NCBI GenBank assembly: GCA_964345045.1
Contig: CAYFPM010000001.1
Location: forward strand, 44,215-108,214
Length of the DNA: 64,000 nucleotides
Direction: 5' to 3'
Source: an uncultured Gammaproteobacteria bacterium
Lineage (GTDB): Bacteria > Patescibacteriota > Patescibacteriia > Magasanikbacterales > UBA922
Shown here: positions 22,786-63,842 of the stretch, one piece after another
How positions within the stretch are numbered: position 1 is the first letter of the stretch
How the letters are laid out: the number at the start of each line of letters is the position of its first letter
The notes under the pieces: model-generated
What the model was told of the DNA's origin: nothing
The model's database searches: none
What the model saw: only the letters and a program-made list of their open reading frames with translations
Translations under genes and position numbers: made by a program

Positions 22786-23415
22786 ATTGGTCAAACAAAA
22801 AAATTCGACTTAATTAGTCGAATTTTTTGTTGTCTTGTTTTTTGTGATAAGCCGAATTTTGTACTCAGGCAAGCTGAGTGATGATCATTTCTCTAGCCAG
22901 TACATTGCTGTACTGATCATAACGAGCTAACTTATCACCAATGCGAAGCATTGGCGCTGCTCTTTCTCTAGGTAGGGTTTACCACGCTCTGGTGTCACCA
23001 CCAGAGGAGTATAGTAGCTTTTGCCAATTGAACAAAAACTTCCATACACTTTTCACCTTTCACCGACGCTCCGCATCGGAAGCTCCAATAATCAAGTTTC
23101 AAGAGACAAATTTGTAACTTGAAATTTTTGATTTGGAATTTCCAATGCGAAGCATTGGTTAGTATAGTCTCTGCGGCACTATCCCGCTCTATACCTCGCA
23201 GCATAGAGGGTGGGTGTTACCCACTACCAGGACCGACGCTCCGCGTCGGAAGCATTGGTCAGAGTTCGGACTTTCCTCTCCGACGTGACGTCGGAGCGAT
23301 CACCTACAAAGAACAAGACCAAGAAAATATAGCATAAAAATGGCGGATTGTCAAGGTAAATGAGTTGTTTTTTGGCTAAATTATAAGGGGGAAGTCTTCT
23401 AAAGGATAGGGGGTC

Positions 23416-23450: not shown

Positions 23451-24326
23451 GTGAGACATCATAAATTGTTTGTCCCAATCTGTGTTCTTTTCTTTGGGAT
23501 GTGCCAGGTATCTCCTGTAGAAGCCTGCATGTACCATGGATCTGCAACCGATCACAAAGAAAAAGACGAATTGACTCTTTTGCTATCCGGGATCCTAGAA
23601 TGGCATGGCGATGTGAGTGCCGGAGCTCCTCATGCCGAAGATATCCCCGATGGTGACAAGCTTGTCTTGACGGTTGATCGAGATTTTCGTCTCTACGGGG
23701 GGGCTGTTGTAGGAAGTTGCTACCAGAGATTTTGTGCTTTTGGTCAATTCTCTCTGGGACTGGGTATCCCAAACCAACATGTGGGATTCCATTTTGCCTA
23801 CCAAATAGGCCTAACACTTCGAGCCTCTATCACTCCGGAGCTGGCGTTTTTTGTTTGGGGTCTGCTAGAGTCCCCTCACCCTGCCGAAGAAGAGGAAGAC
23901 CCTCAAACCGAAGTTGAAGTTGACGAGTCTGGAACTACTGTGACAGTCGAAATCTCTAACCCAAGTCAATCAGACAAACAAGGCAATTCTCCTGCGGGGC
24001 TGCTTGTCACTGGCATTATGGGTGAGAACTTTGGCGTGGGGGTTGGTATTTTTGGATCAGATCTTGGAGCAGGACCGGCTATTATGCTTGCTGGACGAAT
24101 AGGCTTTTTTACAGCCCACATCAGCGTAGCCGCAAATGACAAGTTTGCACGAGGAGATTTTGGGGTAGGTTTTACATCTGCATTTCTTGAAGGAGATCAC
24201 GACGAACATAAGCATACGGAACCCGAAAGTAGGTGCGAACTAAGCGAGGGGGATTGCGAGCTTTGTGGTGGACACTGGCACGAAGCTTCCAAAGGGACAG
24301 GATCCTGCCATATAGGAGAGCATTAA
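23451..24326 (+). CDS. secreted hypothetical protein with C-terminal Cys/His-rich metal-binding-like tail (GC-rich island)
   Basis: signal peptide LFVPICVLFFGMCQVSPVEA; C-terminus CELSEGDCELCGGHWHEASKGTGSCHIGEH. Confidence 0.45.
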   Translation: MRHHKLFVPICVLFFGMCQVSPVEACMYHGSATDHKEKDELTLLLSGILEWHGDVSAGAPHAEDIPDGDKLVLTVDRDFRLYGGAVVGSCYQRFCAFGQFSLGLGIPNQHVGFHFAYQIGLTLRASITPELAFFVWGLLESPHPAEEEEDPQTEVEVDESGTTVTVEISNPSQSDKQGNSPAGLLVTGIMGENFGVGVGIFGSDLGAGPAIMLAGRIGFFTAHISVAANDKFARGDFGVGFTSAFLEGDHDEHKHTEPESRCELSEGDCELCGGHWHEASKGTGSCHIGEH

Positions 24327-35175: not shown

Positions 35176-37761
35176 CTAGATTAGTTTTTTTGATCTGAGT
35201 TTTTGTAGCCGGTCTCTCGCGAGTTTGCCATCCCTGGCCAGTTTACGCTGTCGGGATAGCCAGCTTGTTGAACCGTTGTCTAGTTTCCCACTAGATTCTA
35301 GGCCAGTAAGCAATTCTTGGTATCTTTGATCCCAGCTCTTTTTGGTTTTGCCCCAATCGAACTTTAGGAGATCAAGTTTGCGTACTCGTTCCTTAGAAAG
35401 TTTCCCTTTTCTTCTTCTTACTCTTTGTTGGGCTACCCATGTCGCAAGAGTTTGGTCTTCGTAGAACCTAGTAACCTTGCTGTGACCGTTAGCCTTGAAG
35501 AATGCTGAAAGGATATCGTATGATTCTTCCCAGCTCCTTTTGTCTCGGTACTTCCAACGCAGGCCAATATCGCACAAAGCAACATAGCGTTCGCGAGGTA
35601 GAAGACCTCTAGTGTGACGATCTCTTTGGTAGTTGATCCATCTGCTCAGAGAGTAATTGTCAGGATCCCCAAAGGGGACGTTGCAATCCCCATATTGCTC
35701 CTTGTAGGCGAGCAATTGACCAAACATTTCATCCCAGCTCGAGGTCAACTTGTCTACGCATCGTGTTGTGATCGCGTTACGCAGCAACTCGAGGTCGATC
35801 CCATCAGCTCCAATCACGTCGACTATATCCGCATCGTTGACGTGGTCTTTGCCTTGGTCTCCATTGCTCCCACGTTCACCTCGCTCCTGGCGGAGTCTAG
35901 TGATTTTGTGGGCCATGGCCTCGTCTTGCTCGCGCATGGCGTTGAGCACAGCCCAAACCTCGCGGAAGTCTGCACGCTGCACAGCGTCCTCGATGGATTC
36001 GTCCTCGTGTTGTTCCACATATAGCGGCACAAGAATATAGCCCTTTTTCTTGCCGTTGGCTCGGCGCATGGCTCGGCCAGTAGCTTGGACAATGTCGATG
36101 AGACTACGCTTTTTGGTGAAAAACGCGACCAAATCGACCGTAGGTACGTCCACACCCTCGGTGAGACATCGGGCGTTCGAGATTACTGCTCGCGCAGAAT
36201 GTCGGAAGCCTTGCATCTCTTCTTCGCGCACTGCTGTCGACATATCGCCGTTGACATTGTGGACTGTGAAGTCGCTGGGGATATGGGGAGCCACCGAACG
36301 TGGTCCATCACCAGTGAAAGCCTGGGCATCGACGACGTTGGCATGGAAGGAAAACACTTTGCCTACGCCGTGGCGCTCGATTGCCTTGGCTAGTGAGATC
36401 CAGTTGGCCGCCTCACGCGCCTTGACTCGTACCCCGTCACCCATGTCTACGAAGCCCTTCTCGATATTATCAAGCATCCCGCTTGTCACCACCGACACAA
36501 CGACTTCGTAGTCGCAGATAATGCCTTCGGCAACTGCATCTCGGAAATTCATCTGGTACGCGGTCGGTCCGTAGATTTCTTCATCGTCCATCGAATAGAC
36601 GAGTCTAGCTTCATCATCGTCCTTCTTACTGTCGGGTATATCCCAATGTCTGGGGGTTGCCGTCCAGAAAGTTCGAATGATGATTGGTAGATTCTCGTCT
36701 TCGAGCGCGAATGCGAATTGCCCGCCCTTCTGGGTAGCTGTCTTGTGTGCTTCGTCAAAAACGCCGAGTTCAAAGACGTGCTTCCCACCCATCCCCTCGG
36801 CCACAATCGGTGCCGAGTGGTAGGTGGTGAAAATAATCTTAACCCCATGAGTCTGTGATGCAAGGAATGCAGAAACCGCTGCTGCCTCGTTGGTTACAGG
36901 GAAATCGAGTTCGGTTTGTCCGATCTCGAATTCATGGACACCTTCTGCAACAGTTCGATCCGAACACACGCATAGGAAACTAGGTCGCTGCCAGCTGGTA
37001 TGCTGGAGCCACTCGTGCAGAGTTTGGCGAACTAGTGCAAGTGACGGCACGAGAACTAGGATGCTCTCGACGCCGAGTTGCTCGGCTACAAAAAGCTGAG
37101 TGGAAGTTTTGCCCGTGCCACAGGGCATGATGATTTTCATCCGAGGTTTGTTTTGTGTCACCACCAGGTCACACACATTGTCGCAGGCTTCTTGCTGGCG
37201 TGGCATTGGCTTACGGAGGGTCTTGGCAACTTTGGGTTGCTTTCCGGCAATCCAAGCTCCAATCGCTCGGAGGTTGTCCCGCGTCAGGCGGCTCAGATCT
37301 TTGCCCGAGACTACGTAGATCGATTTAGCTAATCCGTCGATCTCTTCTGGGATCATTTCGACGTTGGTGAAAAGTACATGCGTGCTTCCCCCTCCAACTG
37401 AGAAGAACGGGGTGAGCGCTTCGACGTCTATCTCTTCAGTCTTGTCGCAGAACAACGAATGGTAAACTTGGAGCTCGCCAGTCGCAGTTTCGATGACCCC
37501 ATCGATCAGGTGCGAGTGTAGCCGGAATGTAGCAAAGCCTCGAGGTGCCTGCGTCTCAACCGACCATACCCTCTTGGCTTGTGCCACGGGCATGACAGTG
37601 AGATAGGCTTGCGCGAAGACCATGAAGGCTTCCATGCGCTCTTCTGGATTTTTGAGTCGCGCGATTTTTCGTTCGATCTGCCGGAAGGTGTTGGCGTTTT
37701 CGTAGATACCCATGCGGTTGAAGGTTGCTGCCTTCGGATGTCTGATTGTCTTCAAAGCCAC
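35176..37761 (-). CDS. superfamily-2 DEAD/DEAH-box helicase with C-terminal helicase-associated (HA) domain repeats; GTG start; high-GC island
   Basis: MPCGTGKT Walker A, FDEAHK motif II, QATGRAMR motif VI; repeated W..F..L..Y....G..NVP / L..W...QR C-terminal modules. Confidence 0.7.
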   Translation of the reverse strand: MALKTIRHPKAATFNRMGIYENANTFRQIERKIARLKNPEERMEAFMVFAQAYLTVMPVAQAKRVWSVETQAPRGFATFRLHSHLIDGVIETATGELQVYHSLFCDKTEEIDVEALTPFFSVGGGSTHVLFTNVEMIPEEIDGLAKSIYVVSGKDLSRLTRDNLRAIGAWIAGKQPKVAKTLRKPMPRQQEACDNVCDLVVTQNKPRMKIIMPCGTGKTSTQLFVAEQLGVESILVLVPSLALVRQTLHEWLQHTSWQRPSFLCVCSDRTVAEGVHEFEIGQTELDFPVTNEAAAVSAFLASQTHGVKIIFTTYHSAPIVAEGMGGKHVFELGVFDEAHKTATQKGGQFAFALEDENLPIIIRTFWTATPRHWDIPDSKKDDDEARLVYSMDDEEIYGPTAYQMNFRDAVAEGIICDYEVVVSVVTSGMLDNIEKGFVDMGDGVRVKAREAANWISLAKAIERHGVGKVFSFHANVVDAQAFTGDGPRSVAPHIPSDFTVHNVNGDMSTAVREEEMQGFRHSARAVISNARCLTEGVDVPTVDLVAFFTKKRSLIDIVQATGRAMRRANGKKKGYILVPLYVEQHEDESIEDAVQRADFREVWAVLNAMREQDEAMAHKITRLRQERGERGSNGDQGKDHVNDADIVDVIGADGIDLELLRNAITTRCVDKLTSSWDEMFGQLLAYKEQYGDCNVPFGDPDNYSLSRWINYQRDRHTRGLLPRERYVALCDIGLRWKYRDKRSWEESYDILSAFFKANGHSKVTRFYEDQTLATWVAQQRVRRRKGKLSKERVRKLDLLKFDWGKTKKSWDQRYQELLTGLESSGKLDNGSTSWLSRQRKLARDGKLARDRLQKLRSKKLI

Positions 37762-38155: not shown

Positions 38156-38230
38156 CTCCCCCTATCAGGGGGAGTTAGAGGGGGTCTGGTAGACGATTTG
38201 ACCCCACCTAACCTCCCCTGATAGGGGAGG
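38156..38230. repeat. composite GC-rich palindromic element (CTCCCCCT-N4-AGGGGGAG family), intergenic copy
   Basis: ctccccctatcagggggag ttag agggggtctggtagacgatttgacccc ... cctcccctgataggggagg; same architecture as in-frame copy in queA. Confidence 0.7.
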
Positions 38231-53186: not shown

Positions 53187-53780
53187 TAAGCCTCCCAGGC
53201 ATTGTAAGCCTTTCTAGCCTCCCGGGCTTTCCTACTGTGGATAACCAATTTGACTCAAACTTTCGTCTATACTAATCTACTTACTAATATGAAAAATATT
53301 TCTCTAACAATTCGTCGTTGCGTGAAAAGCCTATGGACTACACTGGCTGCCTTTGCATATGTGACAAATGTCTATAAGACACATACATATGTGCCGGCCA
53401 CTGGGGTGATGTACTTACAAAATGACGAAGGAGAAGAAAGCAACTGCGATAACTGCGGATGCAGAGGAAGCGAAGAATAAAAAGTCATTATAAAAAAGTA
53501 AATCACCCTAGAGATAGGGTGGTTTTGTTTAATAGAAGCTTACAAAGCTAGCAATGCCCACAAGGCTTACAAGGTTTAAAAAGCCTGGTAAGCCTCGTAG
53601 GCCTTATAAGCCTTGTAAGCATTTACAGAGTTCTTTTTACAAGGAGAAAATAAATGGTAATGGAAAAAACTGTGTCGGTATTAGCCAATAGATTTGTTGG
53701 TTGCTACCGACACAGTTAGGTCGCTGGGTTGGGTGCAGGCTCTGTCTGCAAAAAACAATGACCAGGAAGGCTTCGTTACA

Positions 53781-53984
53781 ATGACTACTAGAAAAATTAC
53801 AATGACTCAGTTCATCAGCGATTCGGCCGAAGCGGCGGCTACCCAAGGTGGTTCCCACGACGCTATCGCAACCGGGCTCGATATCGAGCTTATGCCCAAG
53901 GGGGATACCAACAGTGAAGAACCTCTTCCTATCGCTGACTGCAGCACGTTCGCTTGGGGCGATAGACCCTGGTATCTGCAGTAG
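53781..53984 (+). CDS. small (67 aa) GC-rich hypothetical protein
   Basis: RBS aggaagg 8 nt upstream; preceded by a 21-codon uORF with strong RBS aaggagaaaataa-ATG and an 11-bp-stem hairpin. Confidence 0.3.
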   Translation: MTTRKITMTQFISDSAEAAATQGGSHDAIATGLDIELMPKGDTNSEEPLPIADCSTFAWGDRPWYLQ

Positions 53985-54274
53985 CAGCAAGTCTCAACCT
54001 AGGATCAATTCCATTACCACCATTCCTATATACATTTTTTTACAAAGTGTATAGAGACAATGGAAAAATTTAAAACAAATTATGAATTTAAATACTTATA
54101 CATATTATTATTTGCTTCCACTAGCCAAGTGAGAGTAGTTTTGTTTTTTTGCAAAAACACTCCTTGGCTAGGGGTGTTTTTGTTTGTGGGTTGCCAAGAG
54201 ATTTTAAATAGTTTAAAGTCTGCTGGGGATTCTGCAAGGAGAATTTCTCCTGCAAAAAAGGAAGGAGGAATCCT

Positions 54275-54451
54275 ATGTCGAATACGTTTCAGGTCGAGGG
54301 GCACAAGCGCTGCGTGGTCAGCATCGTTGGATCTGCGGATCTGGGGGTGCCTACCGAGATCAAGTGCCTGGACTGTGGAAAGAAGGGGAATGAGGCTCAG
54401 CTCGAGGTCGAGCCCTGTCGAGAGGTCTCGAGCGAAGACGAAGCCGCTTGA
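54275..54451 (+). CDS. small (58 aa) Cys-containing acidic protein, GC-rich
   Basis: strong RBS aaggaggaa; C..CLDC..C pattern; followed by hairpin terminator 54488-54520. Confidence 0.4.
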   Translation: MSNTFQVEGHKRCVVSIVGSADLGVPTEIKCLDCGKKGNEAQLEVEPCREVSSEDEAA

Positions 54452-54586
54452 ACCAAGCCTACATTTTTCATCTTTCACCTTCGTCATTTGCCCGACCGCA
54501 ACAGCGAGTCGGGCACCATTCACAATTATATTTGCTACAAAGTATAATGGTGCAGTGGTAAAAGATTTGTGCTATTATCTAAAAAT

Positions 54587-55723
54587 ATGAAACTCAATAG
54601 CAAAATAAAAAATTTAGCAGAGTCTGCTACTTTGGCTATAAATAACTTGGCTTTGGAAAAAAGAAAAATGGGGGAGCGAGTTTTTAACTTGGCTGCCGGT
54701 GAACCTATGGTAGAAACTCCAGAGGTAGTGATAAACGCCGCCACCAAAGCCATGAAAAATGGCAAAACACACTATCCTCCAGTTTTGGGGATTCCAGAAT
54801 TACGGACTGCTGCCGCAGAGTGGATAAACAAAAATTACCAAACCAATTTTACTACAGAAGAAACAATTGTTACCTGCGGCGGCAAACACGCTCTGGCTAT
54901 GACACTAGAAGCCATTTTGGATCCGGGAAACGAAGCTATAATAATTTCTCCATATTGGGTGTCTTATCCAACTATGGTAGAAAAAAATGAAGGAGTAGTT
55001 AGAATTGTAGAAACGCAAGAAAAAAATAATTGGAAAGTTAAAATAGAAGATTTGGAAAAAAGTTGTACAGACAAAACCAAAGTTTTACTTTTTAACAATG
55101 CTGCCAACCCTACCGGAGTGCTTTATGAAAAAAATGAAGTGGAAGCAATTTTAAAATTTGCCAAAGAAAAAAATATAATAGTTATTTCGGACGAGGTTTA
55201 TAGTGGATTAGTTTATGATGATAAAAAATTTACCTCGGCCGGAAGTTTTGCCGAACACAAAAATAATGTTGTAATTATACAAAGTGCTTCCAAAAGTTTT
55301 GCTATGACGGGGTGGCGAGTTGGTTTGGTATTTGGGGAGATAGAATTGATAAAAGCCTTAAAAAAATTACAAAGTCAAACTACCAGTGGAACTAGTAGCA
55401 TAAGTCAGTGGGCCGCTTTAGCCGCTTTGCAAAATTCAGAAGAGATAACTAAAGAGCTTAAAAAAGAAATGCAAAAAAGAAGAGATTTTTTTGTAGATAA
55501 TTTTTTTACGGAAATAAACAAACCTCAAGCTGGTTTGTATAGTTTTATATCTTTGCAAAAATTTGGCATAGAAAATAATAACTCTGTAGAATTTTGCAAA
55601 AAAGTTTTGCAAGAAAAAAATATTGCCATGGTTCCGGGAGCTCCGTTTGGGGCAGAGGGGTTTGTAAGAATTTCTTTTGGGGTGGAGATTGAGGAGTTGA
55701 AGGGAGCTTTGAGTAGTTTGTAG
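54587..55723 (+). CDS. class I/II pyridoxal-phosphate aminotransferase (aspartate aminotransferase-like)
   Basis: NLAAGEP..., SASKSFAMTGWRVG PLP-lysine motif. Confidence 0.85.
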   Translation: MKLNSKIKNLAESATLAINNLALEKRKMGERVFNLAAGEPMVETPEVVINAATKAMKNGKTHYPPVLGIPELRTAAAEWINKNYQTNFTTEETIVTCGGKHALAMTLEAILDPGNEAIIISPYWVSYPTMVEKNEGVVRIVETQEKNNWKVKIEDLEKSCTDKTKVLLFNNAANPTGVLYEKNEVEAILKFAKEKNIIVISDEVYSGLVYDDKKFTSAGSFAEHKNNVVIIQSASKSFAMTGWRVGLVFGEIELIKALKKLQSQTTSGTSSISQWAALAALQNSEEITKELKKEMQKRRDFFVDNFFTEINKPQAGLYSFISLQKFGIENNNSVEFCKKVLQEKNIAMVPGAPFGAEGFVRISFGVEIEELKGALSSL

Positions 55724-55895: not shown

Positions 55896-56097
55896 TTGAC
55901 ACTCTTTTTCAAGAGGCATATACTAAAAGTGATCCTGGCAAATTTGGACGAATATTCATATTCTACAAACTAGCTATTATGGAATACCTATATCGTCTCG
56001 ATCCGTGGATTGAGATTGCGGTTATCCACCTATTTTATAGGGATAGCGAATAACGTCCGGCTTGGATCATCAAAAAACAGCTAAAAGGCTGTTTTTT
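55896..56097 (+). promoter_or_regulatory. promoter (TTGACA-17-TATACT) + 24-codon ORF MEYLYRLDPWIEIAVIHLFYRDSE + intrinsic terminator, followed by second promoter TTGATT-16-TAGTAT at 56110-56137
   Basis: same promoter/short-ORF/terminator layout as the three downstream attenuators, but peptide not strongly biased (3 Tyr, 1 Trp). Confidence 0.35.
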
Positions 56098-56167
56098 GTT
56101 TTTTCTATTCTTGATTTTTTATCAATTTATGCTAGTATCAATTTCGCAACAACGGTGTTGCTAAAGA

Positions 56168-57772
56168 GTGAGGTTTGTCGTGAAAGTTTTGAGAGAAGTA
56201 GCAAGTGATATTGGTGGGCTCGTTTCGGTGGTGAACCGTGATACGGTTCGCCAATTCGCGCCGAACGATGGCGGCAATGTGTCGCCTATCGCCATGGAGT
56301 GGAGTTCCTTCTTGAGAGGGACGAGTGCCGACCAGGACTTGATCAAGCTGTGTAAACGTAACCAGGTGTGGCAAGTCATCGTGGTCACGCTCCCCGTGAA
56401 TACCTCCTACCTCGAGTTGGTTCGGGGGAGCGAGTTCGAGGGGGCTGACGTCGAGGAAATCTCCAATATGAATGGTGGGTTTGTCCACTACGTCCTGGTT
56501 CGGGCCAACGAGGGGCCGGCCGGCCCCATGAGCGTGGCAATCGGGGGCGATTGCCTGCGCCCAGAGGCCACCTTGACCGAGGTGTTCGAGAGAGCCTCGC
56601 TCTTGGCCACGGCCATGAGAGCAAAGGCCAGGTCGTTTTTGCCCAGTATGCCCGGCTTCCACGCCGGCAAAAAGGGAGCCCTACTCCTCGTCGACCGAGA
56701 TGGCGAGCGCGTGGTGCTGAGCAATCCCTCGGCCATGGCACTCTCGGCACCGGCCATGGTGCTTGGAGTGGGGTTTGCCAACCGACTACGCGTAGAGAGC
56801 TGTGCTGCTTGGGCTAGCCGCTATCGACTACCGCTCGGGGTTTTGTCTCCGGATTCTCTCTCCCCGGACGTGGTTACGGGAGGAGGGTGGACTCGGCTTG
56901 CCCAGGCATTCCGCTACTACGGGCTTGACTCTCGTATGGCCACCTGCCAGCCGGGCAAGACGCCGAATCCCTCGTCGGTGCCCACTGGCCAAGGTGTAGC
57001 CACGGCTGCTCTAGAAGTGGCCAAGTGGCTGCGGGAGTCGGGTAGAGTCCCGCAGGGCGAGCCGATTCGGGTGCTTGTCGAGGCTGCTGGCGCAGTGACG
57101 CAGGGCATGTTCCCACTGCTGCTAGAAGAAGGATTGGTGAAACCCGAGTACCTCACCTTCTACGACCCTAGCAGAGAGGCGATCGCCGTGATCGAGGCTC
57201 TGGTACCCGGCTGCCAAACGCTCTGTCGTTCGAACGATGTGGCACTCAGCAAGTTGGCCAACAAGACCTTCGATATCTTGATCAACAATGGCCTGGGCAA
57301 CCACTTGGGTACGCCAAAGCATATGGAGCACTTGGGAAGGATGGTTAGGTCTGGAGGACAGTTGGTGGTCTTGGGTGGAGCCAACAACATCATCAAGTGG
57401 GACAACCCGGCACTCAACTTGCCTCTCGTCATGGCTGAACGAGGAATTCAGGTGATCCCCGATACGGCTGTGTCGGGCGGTGGTTGGACCTTGGCCTTGG
57501 CTGGCCAAGCTGCCGAAGTGGCCGGGGTTGACCCGAGCAAATTGGCCAACCCGGTCAGTTCGTTTGTGTGTCGCTCGGTCTCGAGGAGAATTCAATCTGC
57601 CCTTGTCGCCTTCGGCGAGGGTGGTGGCGACCACCTCTGGAAGATCGTCTCGGAGCAGATGGAAGAGGCCGCTCCGTCGCTCGACCTGGTTCTCCCCGAG
57701 GACGAGTGGGCGGCGGCTGTCGATCCGAGAGACTTCCTGCGAGCGATAGGTGTGTCGCTCCAGGGCGAGTAG
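56168..57772 (+). CDS. Glu/Leu/Phe/Val-dehydrogenase-family (amino-acid dehydrogenase-like) protein, highly divergent; alternative GTG start 56180
   Basis: VVLGGANNIIKWDNPALNLPLVMAERGIQVIPDTAVSGGGWTL aligns with family block EGANGPTT..A..IL.ERGI.V.PDILANAGGVTVS; canonical GxGxxG replaced (VEAAGAV). Confidence 0.45.
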   Translation: MRFVVKVLREVASDIGGLVSVVNRDTVRQFAPNDGGNVSPIAMEWSSFLRGTSADQDLIKLCKRNQVWQVIVVTLPVNTSYLELVRGSEFEGADVEEISNMNGGFVHYVLVRANEGPAGPMSVAIGGDCLRPEATLTEVFERASLLATAMRAKARSFLPSMPGFHAGKKGALLLVDRDGERVVLSNPSAMALSAPAMVLGVGFANRLRVESCAAWASRYRLPLGVLSPDSLSPDVVTGGGWTRLAQAFRYYGLDSRMATCQPGKTPNPSSVPTGQGVATAALEVAKWLRESGRVPQGEPIRVLVEAAGAVTQGMFPLLLEEGLVKPEYLTFYDPSREAIAVIEALVPGCQTLCRSNDVALSKLANKTFDILINNGLGNHLGTPKHMEHLGRMVRSGGQLVVLGGANNIIKWDNPALNLPLVMAERGIQVIPDTAVSGGGWTLALAGQAAEVAGVDPSKLANPVSSFVCRSVSRRIQSALVAFGEGGGDHLWKIVSEQMEEAAPSLDLVLPEDEWAAAVDPRDFLRAIGVSLQGE

Positions 57773-57899
57773 AGCGACTGCCTGGCTCCGGCCCCTAGTC
57801 TCTTTTTAGGCCAGGCGCGACACCAATTTTTGTTCTTTTTTGTTGCGGCGAGCCTAGATTTTACCTTTGGTATATCTGGGCTCGTTGCACACACTCATC

Positions 57900-58059
57900 T
57901 TGACAAGAAGCAGAGATTTGTGTATATTAGTTTTAATCTTATGAAAACAAATATCCACAACTTCTTTTTCTTTTCTTTCTTTATCCCGCCAAAGAGTCGT
58001 GGTGTTTTGAGTTAATGCAAATTAAAATCAAGATTACCCCGACTCGTCGGGGTTTTTTG
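57900..58059 (+). promoter_or_regulatory. Phe-rich leader-peptide attenuator: promoter TTGACA-17-TATATT, near-leaderless ORF MKTNIHNFFFFSFFIPPKSRGVLS (57941-58015), intrinsic terminator 58036-58059
   Basis: 6 Phe codons in a 7-codon run (TTC TTT TTC TTT TCT TTC TTT); alternative pairing gagtcg(57998)/cgactc(58042) could act as antiterminator. Confidence 0.6.
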
Positions 58060-58167
58060 TTTATTCGGGTTTGGCGAAAGGTGATTAGACTTTTCGCTAA
58101 CCTCGAAGCCATAGTGGCTGAGGGGTTGAGACAATTTTTTCGCGAAAGCGAGAGAGGACAATAGACA

Positions 58168-59019
58168 ATGAAGAGTGAGCGAGAGTTTCTTGCCCAATAC
58201 ATGGACGGACCGGAGCATCGGCCAGACTGGGCTGGACATTCTGCGTTCGAGCTCGAAGGTCAGTTTGCCTTGCGTGGTGGCAATACCAACACCCAGCTGG
58301 TCTACCCGGTTGGACATTTGGTCTACAATGGCTTGATGAAAAGCTTCCCAAATGATCAGGAGCGCTTTAGCCCAGAGTTCAGCAACACTCAGGTGGAGCT
58401 GAACACCGGTGCTTGTGCAACCCCCGATCTGACGCTGGCAAAATTGCTCGAGCTGGTGGGGAAGATCAACCAGGTCGCTGGTCGTCACAACTTCCAGTTC
58501 GTGGATCACGAGTTCATCCCACTCAACGTGTGGGTTCCCGAGCAGGTATCACCGCTGGTGCCCCGCTACCAGCAGTTTGCCAACGATCCAGCCAACGTCG
58601 AGCGCGTGCCGCTGATGCACCGGGTGGCAGCGGCTCAGGTGCAGTGGGGCTGCGCCGATCCGGAGGAGCGTTTGGCACTCTTGAACGCCCTCACCACCGA
58701 ACTCGGTACCATGGAGAGCTTGGGATGGATCGACCCTGGTCGCAAGGCCGCGTTCGAAAAAATCCATGCCGGTTGGTACCCGCCTCCCTTCGACACTTGG
58801 AGTCGGTTTTACGAGTACATCCGAAGTCACCAAGATGGCGTGGCCATGATCGAGAGCCCGGCTCTGTACTACGCAGCAGTGCGTCCTCACCACGTGTACA
58901 GCACTGTCGAGCTCCGGCTCCCCGGCGCTACGCTCGATCCGGAGCGCTTGTTCCAGATTGTGTCGTTCGTGGCCGAGGTGTACAGCCAAGTCTGTAGGCG
59001 ACGTAGTGTAGCTGTCTAG
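58168..59019 (+). CDS. GCS2-family (glutamate-cysteine ligase family 2 / carboxylate-amine ligase) paralog, short form
   Basis: N-terminal AFELEGQ (E-x-E) and C-terminal STVELRLPGATLDPERL resembling YbdK TVEVRVMDTP block; middle HVHVG/LSAASP blocks not recognised. Confidence 0.4.
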   Translation: MKSEREFLAQYMDGPEHRPDWAGHSAFELEGQFALRGGNTNTQLVYPVGHLVYNGLMKSFPNDQERFSPEFSNTQVELNTGACATPDLTLAKLLELVGKINQVAGRHNFQFVDHEFIPLNVWVPEQVSPLVPRYQQFANDPANVERVPLMHRVAAAQVQWGCADPEERLALLNALTTELGTMESLGWIDPGRKAAFEKIHAGWYPPPFDTWSRFYEYIRSHQDGVAMIESPALYYAAVRPHHVYSTVELRLPGATLDPERLFQIVSFVAEVYSQVCRRRSVAV

Positions 59020-59136
59020 TCCCCCCCGAAGCATTCCTGCCCCACAAGAATGCTTCACCCCTTCCCTTTGTACAAAAATAATTTTGTATAGAGAAAAGAG
59101 GATTCTATTTTAAAAAGGAGATTATGCACATTTTGA

Positions 59137-59300
59137 TTGACAGGAAAGTAGAATTTGGATAATATCTAAATATTATGAAAAATAAGCGCAACATTCTGCT
59201 ACTAAGCCTGCTAGCTCTAGCCCCAGAGAGTGGTGATGTTGTGTTATCTGCCTAAGCAAAAACACATATTAGCAACACCGCTCATCTGCGGTGTTTTTGT
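59137..59300 (+). promoter_or_regulatory. Leu-rich leader-peptide attenuator: promoter TTGACA-17-TAATAT, leaderless ORF MKNKRNILLLSLLALAPESGDVVLSA (59175-59255), intrinsic terminator 59275-59300
   Basis: 6 Leu in 8 codons, four of them rare-looking CTA; terminator caccgc tcatct gcggtg ttttt. Confidence 0.6.
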
Positions 59301-59368
59301 TTACTTTGTCGAATTAAGCTTGGACTGAGTAGAGTAAAACTCATTCAGTTCAGACCGATTCTGACAAT

Positions 59369-60694
59369 TTGATTGGACGCTGCGTTGCAGCAAGGAGAGA
59401 AAGCCCCATGGCAACCCCGTGGACTACAGAAAACCTTCAAACCGCTGGCCGAGATGCACTTGCAAATTTGCTGGCGGAGAGTTCGCGAGCAGTTGCCAAG
59501 GCCTCAAATTCTGGTTGGATGGCTTTCGAGATGGAAGCCTCTCTGACCAAACTTCGCATTCCTGATTTGGCTGGGGTCTGGCCTGAAGTGAAGAGGGCTG
59601 ACGAGGTAGGTGTGGTCGTGGACGAGTTTCAAGACTACATGATCGAAGGCGTCCCTCCGCGTGACGCTGGAATCGTGGACGCGATGGGACTTCGTAGTTC
59701 GATCCTAGATGTAGCAGAGGCTATGGTCGCTGCTTGCGACAAGGCTGGCGTGCGCCTTACTCCCATTGCTCACCCTGATTCTTGGGGGGGGAAGCGGGAT
59801 ACCAAGATGCCTCAAAAGGCCGACCACCAGCGCATGGTTCGAGACACCATGCCGGCGGTTGGCTTGGGGGCTATTGGGGCCTCGCTCCAGCTCCACTGTG
59901 CCCACCCCTGCAACATCACCGAGGACAGATACTGGCGTACCCTCTTGCTCCTCCAGCAGCACGCGCCGCTCCTCTTGGCCTTGTCGGCCAACAGCCCCAA
60001 GAGCGGTAGCATGATTCATGGCAGCGTTCGGTATCTGCTTAGCCGATCGGTTTGGTCATTCCAGCCGTACTTCTGGCAGAGCTACGAAGAGTTCGTGGAT
60101 CATGTGCATGCACTTGTCCAGTACGGCAGCATCACCGGGCCGCACAACCTGCACGGTTGGGTCAAAGCCTGTGTCGGTTCGATCGAGCAACGTATCTGCG
60201 ACATTCCCGGTACTGTCCAAGAGATCTGGACGCTCTGTGCTCTGATGCGCGCTTTGGTGCAGTACTGCTACGAGCAGGCAGCTGACCCCAATGGATTCCT
60301 TCTTCAGGGAGATATTGGTCGTGATCAGCTGCTCTTGGCTCTGGAGCAGGCGGCCACCTTTGGCCTTTCCGACATGCAGGATTGCCGAATCCAAAGCCCG
60401 TGGGAAGGTCAGCGCGTCAAGCTCTACGATCTGTTCATGGAGCTCGGCAATCGCGTCGGAGATATCATGACGGATCAAGGGGCTGACTGGGAGAGGCAGT
60501 ACCTCTTCGAGCATATGCTCGCCGATCAGAAATGCGGCGAGAACGGAGCCACCCGGTTTGCGCGTTGGCACGAGCAGCACGACGGCAACATGACCAGGGT
60601 GGTGGAGGCCGCTAGCCGGCACTTCGGGCAGTCTCTCGGAGAGGCGAAAAAATCTCTGTCTGCGATGCAGCCAGATCAAGTCGTGAATCAATAG
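59369..60694 (+). CDS. GCS2-family carboxylate-amine ligase (glutamate-cysteine ligase family 2)
   Basis: LQLHCAHP (cf. HVHVG), LLALSANSPKSG (cf. LSAASPYMQG), SIEQRICDIPGT (cf. TVEVRVMDTP). Confidence 0.55.
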   Translation: MIGRCVAARRESPMATPWTTENLQTAGRDALANLLAESSRAVAKASNSGWMAFEMEASLTKLRIPDLAGVWPEVKRADEVGVVVDEFQDYMIEGVPPRDAGIVDAMGLRSSILDVAEAMVAACDKAGVRLTPIAHPDSWGGKRDTKMPQKADHQRMVRDTMPAVGLGAIGASLQLHCAHPCNITEDRYWRTLLLLQQHAPLLLALSANSPKSGSMIHGSVRYLLSRSVWSFQPYFWQSYEEFVDHVHALVQYGSITGPHNLHGWVKACVGSIEQRICDIPGTVQEIWTLCALMRALVQYCYEQAADPNGFLLQGDIGRDQLLLALEQAATFGLSDMQDCRIQSPWEGQRVKLYDLFMELGNRVGDIMTDQGADWERQYLFEHMLADQKCGENGATRFARWHEQHDGNMTRVVEAASRHFGQSLGEAKKSLSAMQPDQVVNQ

Positions 60695-60890
60695 TTCCTT
60701 TTGTGTAGTTAGCCATAGTTTTGGAGGCTGGCCCACTACACTCCCTTCCTTTTGCACAAAAGTTATTTTGTATAGAAGAGAGGTATAAATTAGTTTTCAC
60801 GCTGGCTCCATAGTCCCAGAGGTCTATGGAGCCAAATTGCCACAATACGGCTCCACAGGGCTACGCCACTATGGAGCCAGCATAGTAGTT

Positions 60891-60991
60891 CCTCCCCTAT
60901 AAGGGGAGGCTAGGTGGGGTCAAATCGTATACCAGACCCCCTCCCCGATGCTTTGATCGGGGCAGGCCAACTCCCCCTATTAGGGGGAGAG
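60891..60991. repeat. composite GC-rich palindromic element (CTCCCCCT-N4-AGGGGGAG family), long variant, just upstream of Ile-leader promoter
   Basis: cctcccctataaggggagg ... ggggtcaaatcgtataccagacccc ... ccccgatgctttgatcgggg ... ctccccctattagggggagag. Confidence 0.7.
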
Positions 60992-61009
60992 TTTCTGTCC
61001 ACAAAAACA

Positions 61010-61165
61010 TTGACATCCGCCTACAGCTCTGATAGGGTGAAGATAATATGAACAAACTATTCAACATTATTATTTGGATTATCGCCCAGTTTGGTGGTAA
61101 GTTTGTTCGTGAATAAAAATATTTACAACAAAAAATTACCGCCGGAGATGGCGGTATTTTTTTTC
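61010..61165 (+). promoter_or_regulatory. Ile-rich leader-peptide attenuator: promoter TTGACA-17-TAGGGT, leaderless ORF MNKLFNIIIWIIAQFGGKFVRE (61048-61116), intrinsic terminator 61136-61165
   Basis: 5 Ile in 7 codons; terminator taccgcc ggagat ggcggta tttttttt; RBS taggaagg before downstream gene. Confidence 0.6.
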
Positions 61166-61267
61166 TCGATCTTTGCAAACGTACTGGGTAGCACTGTGAT
61201 TACAAAATGTATTCAGAGTGGTGCCTAGTACCAAATTTTGTTTTTTGACAATGCAATATAGGAAGGT

Positions 61268-62617
61268 GTGACAATGAATCGGAAAATGAAAGAAGTTGCT
61301 CGTCGGGTCGCAGACCTGATCGAGGCGATGAACTACGCTGGACAGCGTGGGCTCCAGCTTGGGACAGAGCGAGAATTGGTAGCTGTGAAGGCCTCGAATC
61401 CTCGAGAGGTCGGAGGCTTTGCACTCTCTGTCGCCCAGAATCTCGCGACACAGCCAGGTTGGACAGCTGTCTACGACGGCACCACCGATCTGGTGGTTGG
61501 AGCCAAAAGTCCTGGTGGCGAGTACGAGGTCATGACCGACGCTGGCAAGTGGGTTCTAGAATACTGCCCGCTCGCACCGTGCGACTCTCTCAATAGTCTC
61601 GATAGGTTGTGTGGGGAGGCCGAGCGAACGATTATCTCGGCATCCCAAGGGCTTGGTTTCGAAGTTCTCGGTCTTGGGCGGCATCCGCTCTTTCTGGCAA
61701 ACCGGAGTAGCTGGACCCCAAAGCTGCGCTACAATGGTCTGCAGTCAGTTCTCAAGAACGGGGGCCACGAGACCTGCGAGACTGCTTCGCACCAAGATAC
61801 TGTAGACGTACGAAATTCGGGACACATGATGCAGGTGGTCAACATCGGCAACGCTCTAGCAGGTCCGGTTGCCGCTATCTGCGCCAACTCGCTAGTGTTT
61901 CACGGAGAAGTGCATCAAGATCAACTGGCCAGCCGGTTGCTGACGTGGCAAAGGATTTGCCACCCGGTACAATTCGCTCGAGTGGGTATCCCCATGGTCT
62001 TTCGGGACGTAGGGCACTACGCCGAATACCTGGTGCGTTTGCCGTACCTCTTCCACATTCACGAAACTGGTGTTGCCGACGTGTTCGACAAACCTTTCTA
62101 CGAAGCGGTTGAGTACTTCGAGAGCGTTGACTTCGGACGTTTGCTGCAGATTCACATGGCTTGCGTGTGGTTCGATGCTCGGGTACGCATGAACAAGTGT
62201 GCCAGTGTCGAGCTGCGAGCACCGTGTGCTCAGCCTCAAGGCATGGGTCAAGCGGTGTCTGCTCTACACCTAGGGCTGGTTCACAACTCGGCAGCTGCCA
62301 GCAACTTGGTGCTGACGCATTCTTGGGATGAGTGGCAGGCAGCGCGCTTCGATGCCGCCAATTTGGCACTCAACGCCAGCGTTGGATCTGAGCCTATGGC
62401 AGAGGTGGTCCGGTCTATGTTGCACGTGGCCGAAGATGGCTTACGCTTAGCCGGAGAGGACCCTACCAGGCTTGCCCCGCTGTGGCAACGACTCGAGGAT
62501 CCTTCTCAATTGCCAGCTATGATGGCCGGCAAGCTCTTTGTCGAGGGTGGAATAGATGCCTTGGTAGAGGCCAGGCGCTTCCAACTACAGCAAGAGCCAG
62601 TAGCTCGCGCTTCTTAG
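61268..62617 (+). CDS. GCS2-family carboxylate-amine ligase paralog
   Basis: LGTERELVAV N-terminal E-x-E, ICANSLVFHGE, ASVELRAPCAQP (cf. TVEVRVMDTP). Confidence 0.5.
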   Translation: MTMNRKMKEVARRVADLIEAMNYAGQRGLQLGTERELVAVKASNPREVGGFALSVAQNLATQPGWTAVYDGTTDLVVGAKSPGGEYEVMTDAGKWVLEYCPLAPCDSLNSLDRLCGEAERTIISASQGLGFEVLGLGRHPLFLANRSSWTPKLRYNGLQSVLKNGGHETCETASHQDTVDVRNSGHMMQVVNIGNALAGPVAAICANSLVFHGEVHQDQLASRLLTWQRICHPVQFARVGIPMVFRDVGHYAEYLVRLPYLFHIHETGVADVFDKPFYEAVEYFESVDFGRLLQIHMACVWFDARVRMNKCASVELRAPCAQPQGMGQAVSALHLGLVHNSAAASNLVLTHSWDEWQAARFDAANLALNASVGSEPMAEVVRSMLHVAEDGLRLAGEDPTRLAPLWQRLEDPSQLPAMMAGKLFVEGGIDALVEARRFQLQQEPVARAS

Positions 62618-62744
62618 TTCTTTTGCGGATCTCATCCATCCGCCTACTCCTTTTGTAGACGAAAAATCGTCTGCAAAAGAAGACTCTTAGCCAATTGACT
62701 AAGGGGAAAAATTTTGATATATTTTATTCCATTTATAAAAAATT

Positions 62745-63842
62745 ATGGACAATAATAAATTGGACGACATAGTAGCCTTAACCAAAAAATTGGTTCATTT
62801 TCGTGGTACCGAAAGTAGAGTAGAAAATCTTCGCCGTTGTGCAGATTTTATTGCTGATTATTTTATAGATAGTGGCCTTACAGTAGAGCGCTTTGAAAAA
62901 GATGGATACCCTTCGGTCGTAGTCACCAAACATGGCACCAAAAAACCCAAAATTTTTCTAAACGGACATTTTGATATGGTAGAGGGAGAAGATCACCAAT
63001 TTGATCCCAAAATAGAAGGAGACAGAATGTTTGGTAGGGGAGTGTTTGATATGCAAAGTGGCAATGCTGTTATTATGACATTGATGAAAGAACTAGCTCA
63101 TACCGAACACGATGTAGGATTAATGCTAACCGGAGACGAAGAAGCCGGTGGTTTTCGGGGTGTTGGTTATGTAATGGATTTTAACTATAGTTCGGATGTA
63201 GTAATAATTCCCGATGGTGGCATGGCCGTAGAAAATATTATAAGTAGAGAAAAAGGGATTATAAGATTTGATCTACAAGCTCATGGCAAAAGATCTCATT
63301 CGGCCTATCCTTGGCTTGGTGACAATGCTATTACCAAATTGATGAGTGGAATAGAAAAAACACTAGCTCTTTTCCCAGAATCAGAAAAAGATATAGAAGA
63401 TAATTGGACAACCAATGTAGCTGTAACCAAAATTAATGCTGGTATAGGTGGCAATGTAGTACCGGAAAAAGCCTATGCTCATTTTGATGTTCGTTATATT
63501 ACAGAGGACAACCCCGAAGAAATCTTGGAAAGAATTAGAAAAGTTTTGCCAGACGGAGTAGATTTAAAATTAGATTTTATAGAACCAGCTACCAGCACAG
63601 ATACTAGTAGTCCATATGTAGAAAAATTTGTCGAAACCCTAAAAGAGCACGACAAAGAACCAAAATTCATTTCGGCTATGGCGGCCTCTGATTCTAGATT
63701 TTTTCACGAAAGAGGCATTCCGTTTATCATAAGCCAACCAGAAGGTGGCGGACATCACGGTCCATACGAATGGGTAAGAGTTTCGGCAATTGGCAAATAT
63801 TACGATATACTAAAGTCATACCTAGATAAGGTTGCCAGGTAA
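62745..63842 (+). CDS. M20-family metallopeptidase (ArgE/DapE/dipeptidase-like)
   Basis: LNGHFDMVEGE and TGDEEAGG metal-ligand motifs. Confidence 0.8.
   Translation: MDNNKLDDIVALTKKLVHFRGTESRVENLRRCADFIADYFIDSGLTVERFEKDGYPSVVVTKHGTKKPKIFLNGHFDMVEGEDHQFDPKIEGDRMFGRGVFDMQSGNAVIMTLMKELAHTEHDVGLMLTGDEEAGGFRGVGYVMDFNYSSDVVIIPDGGMAVENIISREKGIIRFDLQAHGKRSHSAYPWLGDNAITKLMSGIEKTLALFPESEKDIEDNWTTNVAVTKINAGIGGNVVPEKAYAHFDVRYITEDNPEEILERIRKVLPDGVDLKLDFIEPATSTDTSSPYVEKFVETLKEHDKEPKFISAMAASDSRFFHERGIPFIISQPEGGGHHGPYEWVRVSAIGKYYDILKSYLDKVAR

Follow-up and report, generated by a model that had tools for sequence, protein, structure and literature searches.

Probable leader-peptide attenuators with Phe, Leu and Ile codon runs precede three GCS2-family ligase genes in a GC-rich genomic island

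A 64,000-nucleotide stretch of the bacterial contig CAYFPM010000001.1 (assembly GCA_964345045.1; hereafter the window, in whose numbering all window positions are given) contains a 6.7 kb island of four genes, g1 to g4, with a composition of its own. The GC content of the window backbone is about 0.33-0.41, compared with 0.51-0.56 at 56001-62000. The island genes themselves reach 0.57-0.60, and their GC content at third codon positions (GC3) is 0.60-0.71 against 0.25-0.39 in seven host genes, in line with the original prediction, made from the sequence alone, of four genes far richer in GC than the backbone. Codon choice differs in the same way: UUC makes up 70% of the Phe codons in the island and 9% in host genes, AUC 67% versus 11% of the Ile codons, and CUC and CUG combined 55% versus 8% of the Leu codons. 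The genes g2, g3 and g4 encode proteins of the GCS2 superfamily, and each of them is preceded by a unit that consists of a promoter, a short open reading frame (ORF) dominated by codons for one amino acid (Phe, Leu and Ile, respectively) and an intrinsic terminator. Genes and units are:

56180-57772 (ORF from 56168), forward strand: g1, 530 amino acids (aa), with a C-terminal Rossmann half that is ELFV-dehydrogenase-like
57900-57928, forward strand: promoter of the Phe leader, TTGACA-17-TATATT (promoter scan)
57941-58015, forward strand: Phe leader ORF MKTNIHNFFFFSFFIPPKSRGVLS, six Phe codons with UUC and UUU alternating, nearly leaderless
57993-58004, forward strand: Phe antiterminator segment AGAGUCGUGGUG, pairing with the terminator 5' arm (-13.9 kcal/mol; 0 of 500 shuffles)
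58036-58059 (stem 58036-58053), forward strand: Phe intrinsic terminator ACCCCGAC/UCGGGGU with U-run (terminator scan)
58168-59019, forward strand: g2, a "mini" GCS2 ligase of 283 aa; its fold is YbdK-like and the invariant Glu/Arg residues are intact
59137-59165, forward strand: promoter of the Leu leader, TTGACA-17-TAATAT (promoter scan)
59175-59255, forward strand: Leu leader ORF MKNKRNILLLSLLALAPESGDVVLSA, with the Leu codons CUG and CUA
59227-59236, forward strand: Leu antiterminator segment AGAGUGGUGA, with two alternative partners, Leu-codon region (1:2) and terminator 5' arm (2:3)
59274-59303 (stem 59274-59295), forward strand: Leu intrinsic terminator AACACCGC/GCGGUGUU with U-run (terminator scan)
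59408-60694, forward strand: g3, a 428-aa GCS2-superfamily protein, YbdK-like
61010-61038, forward strand: promoter of the Ile leader, TTGACA-17-TAGGGT (read directly)
61048-61116, forward strand: Ile leader ORF MNKLFNIIIWIIAQFGGKFVRE, with an Ile run
61089-61100, forward strand: Ile antiterminator segment GUUUGGUGGUAA, with two alternative partners, AUUAUCGCC upstream of it (1:2) and terminator arm UUACCGCC (2:3)
61137-61165 (stem 61137-61156), forward strand: Ile intrinsic terminator UACCGCCG/UGGCGGUA with U-run (terminator scan)
61274-62617, forward strand: g4, a 447-aa GCS2-superfamily protein, nearest to plant-type glutamate-cysteine ligase models

The original prediction had placed before each ligase gene a TTGACA promoter with 17-nucleotide (nt) spacing, an almost leaderless short ORF rich in a single amino acid, and a GC-rich stem followed by a T-run. 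All three parts were indeed recovered before all three genes, with a weak -10 hexamer in the Ile unit. The leader ORFs comprise 22-26 codons, and their ATG lies only 10-13 nt past the -10 hexamer (3-7 nt past the predicted start site), because of which they should be leaderless or nearly so. The dominant amino acid accounts for 6 of 8 residues in the Phe cluster, 6 of 8 in the Leu cluster and 5 of 8 in the Ile cluster; the codons CUG and CUA of the Leu leader are rare in host genes (3% and 14%). The terminator stems have 7-8 bp with 5 GC pairs, followed by the U-run, and begin 20, 18 and 20 nt after the respective stop codons. About 105-115 nt past each terminator starts the GCS2 gene, with a purine-rich ribosome-binding site. 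Among the 19 strong terminator-like sites in 72.6 kb of the contig (both strands), only those of the Phe, Leu and Ile leaders follow an ATG-initiated ORF in which 5 or more of 8 residues are identical.

Folding of the leaders, as the original prediction had proposed, gave mutually exclusive antiterminator and terminator structures in all three, dependent on the position of the ribosome. For this analysis we computed minimum-free-energy (MFE) folds of each leader and mimicked the ribosome by making a 29-nt stretch unpairable. The free Leu leader forms a 1:2 hairpin, in which the Leu-codon region pairs with AGAGUGGUGA..., together with the terminator; with the A-site on Leu 8, 9, 10 or 12, the 2:3 antiterminator forms and 0 terminator pairs are left. 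The free Ile leader likewise shows a 1:2 hairpin of AUUAUCGCC with GGUGGUAA plus the terminator, while a stall at Ile 7-9 gives the 2:3 pairing of GGUGGUAA with UUACCGCC and again 0 terminator pairs. In the Phe leader, a stall at Phe 8-11 yields the antiterminator. With the ribosome at the stop codon, the terminator forms in the Phe, Leu and Ile leaders. The duplexes between segment 2 and the terminator arm have energies of -13.7 to -14.5 kcal/mol and end 8-16 nt ahead of the stop codon; shuffles as stable were found in 0-5 of 500 cases (0 of 500 for the Leu duplex at -14.5 kcal/mol, 5 of 500 for the Ile duplex at -13.7 kcal/mol). When the sequence upstream of the terminator was dinucleotide-shuffled, the complete switch was reproduced in 7 of 300 (Phe), 2 of 300 (Leu) and 3 of 300 (Ile) cases.

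The pairing of leader and gene, which the original prediction had suggested looking for in related genomes, recurs in metagenomic loci: Phe leaders stand before g2-family genes in L019, L021/L022 and L034 (L022 duplicates L021). In L019, where the g2 homolog is 35% identical, a TTGACA promoter, the Phe leader MIQNLHNLFFFFFFTPQRVVVI and a terminator precede the g2-like gene. The order in this locus, from a g1-like C-terminus through the Phe leader and the g2-like gene to a promoter and a Leu-type leader MNITHRALLLG... at the contig end, matches the order g1, Phe leader, g2 and Leu leader of the window, with the Leu leader of L019 being partial. Leader DNA of the window and L019 aligns well although the g2 proteins are only 35% identical. 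The locus L021/L022 (29% identity) has a TTGACC promoter, the Phe leader MSSSIRQSFFFFTPSGGSVV, a terminator and the g2-like gene; L034 (34% identity) has the Phe leader MKTNRYFFFAFFFASAGGGLSRCA and a terminator. The L034 contig (overall GC 0.54) belongs to a relative of the window organism, with EF-G, S12 and UvrD 75%, 81% and 64% identical and partial synteny, and carries the module at a different site, between TGT and UvrD. A Phe leader is thus present before 4 of 4 g2-family genes with a complete upstream region (window, L019, L021/L022, L034); a fifth gene, in L020, was left out, its upstream region being cut by the contig end. The terminator arms differ among these loci (ACCCCGAC, CACCCCGA, ACACUCCGCC, CCCACCGC), and segment 2 changes in step with them (GAGUCGUGGUG, GAGUCGUGGUGA, GGCGGUAGUGUU, GGCGGUGG), with duplexes of -13.9 to -16.6 kcal/mol.

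Leaders of the same design also precede ligases of another fold. In L020, an ILV-type leader MNRTNYRNLILVIVVILLGQGGSLSYLQA, whose terminator region is homologous to that of the window Ile leader (AAAATTACCGCC conserved) and which switches like it in ribosome-masked folds, precedes a high-GC gene for a 481-aa protein related to ATP-grasp peptide ligases (PDB 8ynd, 2e-4; PGM1 3wvq, 1.3e-3). Two M20 peptidases follow this ligase, the first of which is 42% identical to that of the window. On the other strand of L021, an Ile leader MNTSFVHNQVGIIEISIGLPMGKGLLYHA shows the full switch in masked folds and precedes a 424-aa ATP-grasp-like protein with weak similarity to the L020 ligase (E 0.004); this locus additionally encodes a GATase/C26-like protein. 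The total amounts to nine leaders of this design in six loci (window, L019, L020, L021/L022, L034) plus the partial Leu-type leader of L019, and in all nine the ATG lies about 10-14 nt past the -10 hexamer. Seven leaders from the window and related loci have duplexes of -13.7 to -16.6 kcal/mol, with 0-22 of 500 shuffles as stable; 2-18 nt separate the end of the duplex from the stop codon. Scanning JGI metagenomes with a DNA pattern returned 7 chance matches and 4 real Phe leaders of a different sub-type (for example MNTNRKIFGFFFTPMI, with ACCCCGAU/AUCGGGGU repeated as segments 1-4) in the low-GC contigs L026, L029, L030 and L031. In L031 (208-4446, reverse strand), such a leader opens an operon that encodes a 286-aa protein whose N-terminus has a glycine-rich motif (Rossmann-like on visual inspection, without a match in Pfam) and a 664-aa protein of no family, and that ends in an M20 peptidase; no homolog of g1-g4 was found in this operon. 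An M20 peptidase neighbour thereby recurs in the window, L020 and L031. As a separate observation, the g2 homolog of L021 is followed at 2283-2363 by a short ORF rich in Leu, MANAYLLSLFLLIATIVVTKRSNASE, and then by a 12-bp hairpin; no gene lies downstream on that strand, and the ORF may be the relic of a Leu leader whose gene was lost.

The GCS2 assignment of the original prediction held for all three ligases: against the Pfam model PF04107 (gathering score 21 bits) g2 scores 30.8, g3 29.5 and g4 40.0 bits, and the fold model of g2 agrees. Its term "paralogs" proved an overstatement, as g2, g3 and g4 do not detect one another by BLASTP; from their sequences they are best described as three distant branches of one superfamily and not as recent paralogs. 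Compared with the NCBIfam equivalogs of YbdK-type and Glu-Cys ligases (TIGR02050, NF0100xx, TIGR01436), the best scores of g2, g3 and g4 (55.5, 47.5 and 43.8 bits) stay far below the curated cutoffs of 176-463, with g2 and g3 leaning toward YbdK-type and g4 toward plant-type glutamate-cysteine ligase. An exhaustive HMMER search gave about 40 cluster representatives for the g2 family, 220-390 aa long and mostly about 255-300 aa, plus one further match that is a single stretch of a 4945-aa protein; g2 is not a fragment. Across 18 family members, the typical active-site residues E28, E30, E70, Q75, E77, R152, R192, R239, E248 and R250 are invariant or nearly so, and the ligases look catalytically intact. 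The AlphaFold model of g2, built from the 18-member alignment, has a predicted local distance difference test (pLDDT) score of 94.4. Its best PDB matches are YbdK (1r8g, 1tt4; template-modelling (TM) score 0.67) and plant Glu-Cys ligase (2gwc; TM 0.69); glutamine synthetases rank next. For the island proteins in general very few relatives were found. A word-indexed search returned no relatives of g3 beyond itself, and the g4 relatives P0002 (31% identity) and P0003 (26%) stand in unrelated contexts with no room for a leader. Nothing was found when the g2 alignment was used for a protein-pattern scan of contigs from JGI metagenomes, nor in viral contigs scanned with the g2 and g1 alignments.

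Known attenuators resemble the leaders in logic and differ from them in their targets. The E. coli pheL peptide carries the Phe run FFFAFFF. The same run is found in L034, and FFFFSFF in the window; with the enterobacterial pheA/pheST leader our Phe units share the Phe-codon short ORF, the alternative antiterminator and terminator hairpins, and the intrinsic terminator before the structural gene. They differ from pheL in the nearly leaderless ORF, in the lack of a clear 1:2 protector and in the regulated gene, which is a 283-aa GCS2 ligase rather than chorismate mutase/prephenate dehydratase or PheRS. The Rfam model Phe_leader (RF01859) likewise scores only 27-32 bits against a gathering score of 55: 27.1 bits on the Phe leader (57949-58061) and 32.2 bits (E 0.017) on the Ile leader (61044-61164), in both cases over the full model length; the homologous loci gave no Phe_leader match at E <= 1, and none of the other Rfam families fitted the window leaders. 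In E. coli, the leu leader (leuL) uses the rare Leu codon CUA. Like leuL and the ilvL/ilvBNC attenuators, the window and related leaders have Leu runs (rare CUA/CUG) or Ile/Leu/Val runs and the four-segment logic of 1:2, 2:3 and 3:4 pairings; unlike these, each controls a single monocistronic ligase gene and not a biosynthetic operon, and Leu_leader (RF00512; gathering score 50 bits) gave no match at 59172-59303 at E <= 10. T-box riboswitches of Firmicutes and other bacteria also couple uncharged tRNA to antitermination of amino-acid-related genes, with one specifier per gene; here sensing would instead proceed via translation of a short ORF, and the Rfam T-box model gave no match in the window. 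A parallel in transcript architecture is found in the Actinobacteria, where ilvBNC-type attenuators such as that of Corynebacterium glutamicum encode a leader peptide on a leaderless transcript (PMC11857589, PMC1262725). Our leaders share with these the leaderless peptide and the three-hairpin attenuator, and differ in phylum, in the AT-rich leader before GC-rich genes and in targets that are not branched-chain biosynthetic genes. On the side of the enzymes, YbdK/GCS2 ligases and plant-type glutamate-cysteine ligase resemble ours in the Pfam GCS2 domain, the superposition of g2 and the conserved Glu/Arg residues; identity to the solved structures is 13-17%, and g2 is about 70-100 residues shorter. 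The original prediction knew of no GCS2 protein under leader-peptide control, and our full-text literature searches likewise found no paper that links leader peptides or attenuation to carboxylate-amine ligases or to the candidate phyla radiation (CPR)/Patescibacteria.

We conclude, with a probability of roughly 0.82, that the three short ORFs act as ribosome-mediated transcription attenuators for Phe, Leu and Ile. Each unit would be transcribed from its own sigma-70-type promoter. With charged tRNA-Phe, tRNA-Leu (CUG/CUA) or tRNA-Ile in good supply, the ribosome would run to the stop codon and there cover or free the RNA such that the GC-rich hairpin with its U-run folds and terminates transcription ahead of the ligase gene. 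Under a shortage of the cognate charged tRNA, the ribosome would stall on the first regulatory codons, segment 2 would pair with the terminator 5' arm, and RNA polymerase would read into g2, g3 or g4. From the anatomy, the folds, their rarity among shuffles, and the conservation with co-variation, we infer that read-through in vivo responds to Phe, Leu and Ile. The mechanism as such is known; what is new is the class of enzymes regulated and the modular cassette form.

Attenuators are normally specific for the amino acid that is supplied or handled by the product of the downstream gene, and leader-peptide attenuation, a textbook mechanism, is to our knowledge almost always found on biosynthetic operons or tRNA synthetases, which makes the codon run a reliable label of a gene's purpose. 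Here three consecutive genes for enzymes of unassigned role bear such a label, each for a different amino acid, and the Phe label stays with the 283-aa GCS2 subfamily down to about 30% identity. Each ligase may plausibly be specific for the amino acid that its leader senses, which gives one testable substrate hypothesis (Phe, Leu or Ile) per ligase. Because of this specificity and of recurrent neighbours that release or interconvert amino acids (M20 peptidase, the GATase/C26-like protein of L021, aminotransferase, ELFV-like g1), we favour supply, salvage or capture of Phe, Leu and Ile. That the GCS2 ligases, and the ATP-grasp-like proteins in related loci, supply or salvage the sensed amino acid falls somewhat short of an even bet; if so, they probably work together with the M20 amidohydrolase, the aminotransferase and the ELFV-like dehydrogenase. 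More tentatively, and with the odds rather against it, GCS2- and ATP-grasp-type amide ligases might form an unrecognised response to amino-acid limitation in CPR-like bacteria unable to make Phe, Leu and Ile, with one ligase per amino acid under its own leader, spread laterally as promoter-leader-gene cassettes. In such a response the scarce amino acid could be captured as a gamma-glutamyl or dipeptide conjugate, or could be released from conjugates by Dop-like amide cleavage, and M20 and C26 hydrolases would close the cycle. Independently of this reading, the loci point to a response to starvation in organisms that probably have no biosynthetic pathways for Phe, Leu and Ile, and they add leader families that no Rfam model reaches at gathering score.

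Several observations weigh against our main explanation, attenuation with a role in supply or salvage. All of our results are computational, and no Rfam leader family is reached at its gathering score by the window leaders or in the homologous loci. The promoter of the Ile leader has a weak -10 hexamer. The free RNA of the Phe leader folds as the antiterminator (GAGUCG.GGUG with UACC.CGACUC) without a 1:2 protector; in our folding model this leader is a two-state version that would depend on occlusion by the terminating ribosome. For the L021 Phe leader the full-length MFE structure retains the terminator in all ribosome states, and its switching therefore would hinge on co-transcriptional kinetics. 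The protein g2 is not depleted in Phe (5.3%), nor is g3 in Leu (9.8%); Ile is low in all four island genes, as expected because of their high GC. The taxonomic placement of the host is weakly supported, since the best relatives of the neighbouring aminotransferase are only 38% and 29% identical. Finally, an ATP-consuming ligase that uses up an amino acid and is induced at its scarcity is counter-intuitive. Dop can cleave amides, and by this analogy the ligase reaction could run in either direction. Dop belongs to the same carboxylate-amine ligase superfamily as GCS2 and YbdK (PMC2588565).

The same attenuators could serve a different purpose, in that natural antimetabolites (amino-acid analogues or aminoacyl-adenylate mimics) inhibit Phe-, Leu- or Ile-tRNA synthetase and thereby induce ligases that acylate the amine of the inhibitor and so detoxify it. 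What an attenuator senses is the charging of tRNA and not the amino acid itself, the amide-forming chemistry of GCS2 and ATP-grasp enzymes suits the modification of amine compounds better than biosynthesis, and the modules look horizontally mobile, with different sites in related hosts and a foreign composition. Yet we know of no such resistance enzyme, the neighbourhood lacks transporter and toxin-related genes, and the recurrent M20, GATase/C26-like, aminotransferase and ELFV-like neighbours release or convert amino acids, so that we hold this explanation to be unlikely. If the short ORFs were instead themselves substrates of the ligases, as precursors like those of ribosomally synthesised and post-translationally modified peptides or as Pup-like tags, the hairpin with its U-run would set the stoichiometry of peptide and enzyme. 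Partial terminators after precursor genes are known from lanthipeptide operons, and two of the peptides end in Glu (sORF1, encoded before g1, in ...RDSE and the Ile leader in ...FVRE). Indeed, PafA and Dop of the pupylation pathway share the superfamily of GCS2/YbdK (PMC2588565). The C-termini, however, differ among homologs (IPPKSRGVLS, TPQRVVVI, TPSGGSVV, ASAGGGLSRCA), and none of the peptides, which are 20-29 aa long, ends in GGQ or GGE. It is the regulatory codon run and the RNA pairing segments that are conserved, with arms that co-vary at the RNA level, and the same leader type precedes unrelated ligase folds (GCS2, ATP-grasp). We regard this possibility as very improbable.

Hardly any credence goes to small hydrophobic membrane peptides of the type I toxin kind, or to chance ORFs, with terminators that end small transcripts and ligases expressed from separate promoters. 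The peptides are hydrophobic, and a promoter could be hidden in the 110-120 nt that separate terminator and gene; L020 indeed has a second TTGACA-type promoter downstream of its leader terminator. In the three window units, however, the promoter scan listed no site between terminator and gene. The hydrophobic runs of 7-11 residues are too short for a membrane span, no promoter for an antisense RNA is evident, a single amino acid dominates each peptide, and antiterminator complementarity and dependence on ribosome position are rare in shuffles. The poor fit of both the peptide-substrate and the toxin explanations stems from what is conserved, namely the codon runs and RNA arms and not the C-termini. 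Finally, the sharp GC contrast might suggest an assembly chimera of high-GC genes and a low-GC contig, to which we assign next to no probability. Four alternations of low-GC leader and high-GC gene make up the island, the same mosaic occurs in the unrelated samples L019, L020 and L012, and the same junctions are present in two ENA assemblies of different runs, a Logan assembly and the NCBI contig.

The assembly evidence is as follows. The ENA metagenome contig ERZ930070 (116.9 kb) contains the window DNA, and a second ENA assembly from a different run (L015) has the same DNA with 99.98% identity over 17.8 kb and four differing positions. A Logan assembly spans the g4-M20-rhodanese junction, and the NCBI contig (621 kb) also carries the island including g3 and g4. 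Because of this agreement the island is not an assembly chimera. The four differences in L015 all lie within 23 bp of g1 (57255-57277); one of them appears to create a stop codon that splits g1 into products of 362 and 149 aa, which may mean that strains differ here, that g1 is decaying or that the assembly has a local error. In L019, L020, L021 and L012, too, module genes of high GC3 stand in backgrounds of lower GC, with proteins only 29-40% identical. Relatives richer in GC, such as the L034 lineage, could have donated these genes repeatedly; alternatively, selection could account for the pattern.

For g1 the original prediction of a Glu/Leu/Phe/Val dehydrogenase comes down to remote homology of the C-terminal, dinucleotide-binding half; g1 itself has no Pfam match, ELFV_dehydrog (PF00208) and ELFV_dehydrog_N (PF02812) included. 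Of its homologs P0005 and P0006, both 39% identical, the latter matches PF00208 at 1.3e-9, and the three-sequence family profile A1 matches PDB Glu/Leu dehydrogenases at E 4e-5 to 1e-3, in the C-terminal half only. The N-terminal ELFV domain was not detected in the g1 family, and the N-terminal half of g1 resembles the ELFV "GG.K" region by eye only. The AlphaFold 2 model from the three-sequence alignment (pLDDT 47.5) is too poor to use. "ELFV-like" is for these reasons a statement of remote homology. A g1 homolog in L012 (7008-8633; 39% identity, GC 0.63, GC3 0.76) lies in a contig of 0.43 GC next to the gene for ribosomal protein L1, has a promoter-like site and no leader ORF, and is followed directly by the contig end. 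The gene upstream of the g1 homolog in L014 is unrelated to g1-g4.

Around and between these genes we located further elements:

54569-55723, forward strand: class I/II aminotransferase (aspartate-aminotransferase-like), left neighbour of the island, host composition with GC3 0.30
55896-56098, forward strand: unit before g1, with promoter TTGACA-17-TATACT (55896-55924), a short ORF and a terminator (56071-56098)
55979-56053, forward strand: sORF1 MEYLYRLDPWIEIAVIHLFYRDSE, 24 codons without an amino-acid run
56111-56138, forward strand: candidate promoter of g1, TTGATT-16-TGcTAGTAT with extended -10 (read directly, under the scan threshold)
59059-59092, forward strand: 3' hairpin element, copy 1, CCCTTCCCTTTGTACAAAAATAATTTTGTATAGA, directly after g2
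60743-60776, forward strand: 3' hairpin element, copy 2, directly after g3, 88% identical to copy 1
62745-63842, forward strand: M20 (ArgE/DapE-type) peptidase, right neighbour of the island, host composition, own promoter at 62695-62723

The unit before g1 was considered as a fourth attenuator and rejected: it has no codon run and no antiterminator, and its terminator persists in all ribosome states. Its RNA is strongly folded (z-score -3.6), and the unit (55896-56106) may be a gene for a small RNA or a small protein. Judged by its upstream sequence, g1 is probably driven by its own promoter at 56111-56138. The 3' hairpin element is an imperfect palindrome CCYTTTGYACAAAA...TTTTGTATAGA with only two copies in the window; similar hairpins follow homologous genes in L020 (about 1100-1135 and 3505-3550) and L034 (about 7405-7440). 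Its possible functions are to terminate transcription at the gene end, to stabilise the RNA or to mark a cassette boundary. Between g3 and the promoter of the Ile leader, at 60800-60990, lies a cluster of GC-rich palindromes comprising two GGCTCCATAG...CTATGGAGCC hairpins, CTCCCCTATAAGGGGAG and CTCCCCCTATTAGGGGGAG. A similar palindrome CTCCCCTGATAGGGGAG is found at 38213-38229 between two tRNA genes, and we term all of these REP-like (repetitive extragenic palindrome).

The aminotransferase matches Pfam Aminotran_1_2 at 3.8e-80 and NCBIfam asp_aminotase_Arch at 2e-109, under the cutoff of the latter model. In a scan of genome collections its nearest relatives were found in metagenome-assembled genomes of Doudnabacteria (38% identity) and Saccharimonadales (29%), and no synteny with these distant relatives was detected. 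Since the scan gave distant relatives only, the host taxonomy remains inferred; 23S-IVP genes and the 621-kb size of the NCBI contig are, alongside the aminotransferase relatives, weak pointers to a CPR-like host. The organism is probably a small-genome CPR/Patescibacteria-like bacterium that relies on scavenged amino acids.

Other GC-rich genes also stand in the low-GC backbone, namely a helicase with two HA domains at 35176-37761 (reverse strand; GC 0.52, GC3 0.57) and ORFs without Pfam match at 18222-19361 and 23451-24326 (both forward strand; GC 0.56 and 0.49). Each of the three has a TTGACA-type promoter and no leader ORF, and this genome seems to hold several inserts of foreign composition. 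Between a gene of the 23S-rRNA-IVP type (four-helix bundle) and the aminotransferase lies a segment of about 1.3 kb (53200-54560) without a convincing gene; it contains a 176-aa ORF of no family and a short ORF with terminator at 53422-53525, and is possibly a non-coding RNA or a decayed gene. Finally, a bacterial class A RNase P RNA is encoded at 22832-23315 on the reverse strand (142.8 bits), where the match covers 484 nt against a model of 367 positions and hence includes large insertions.

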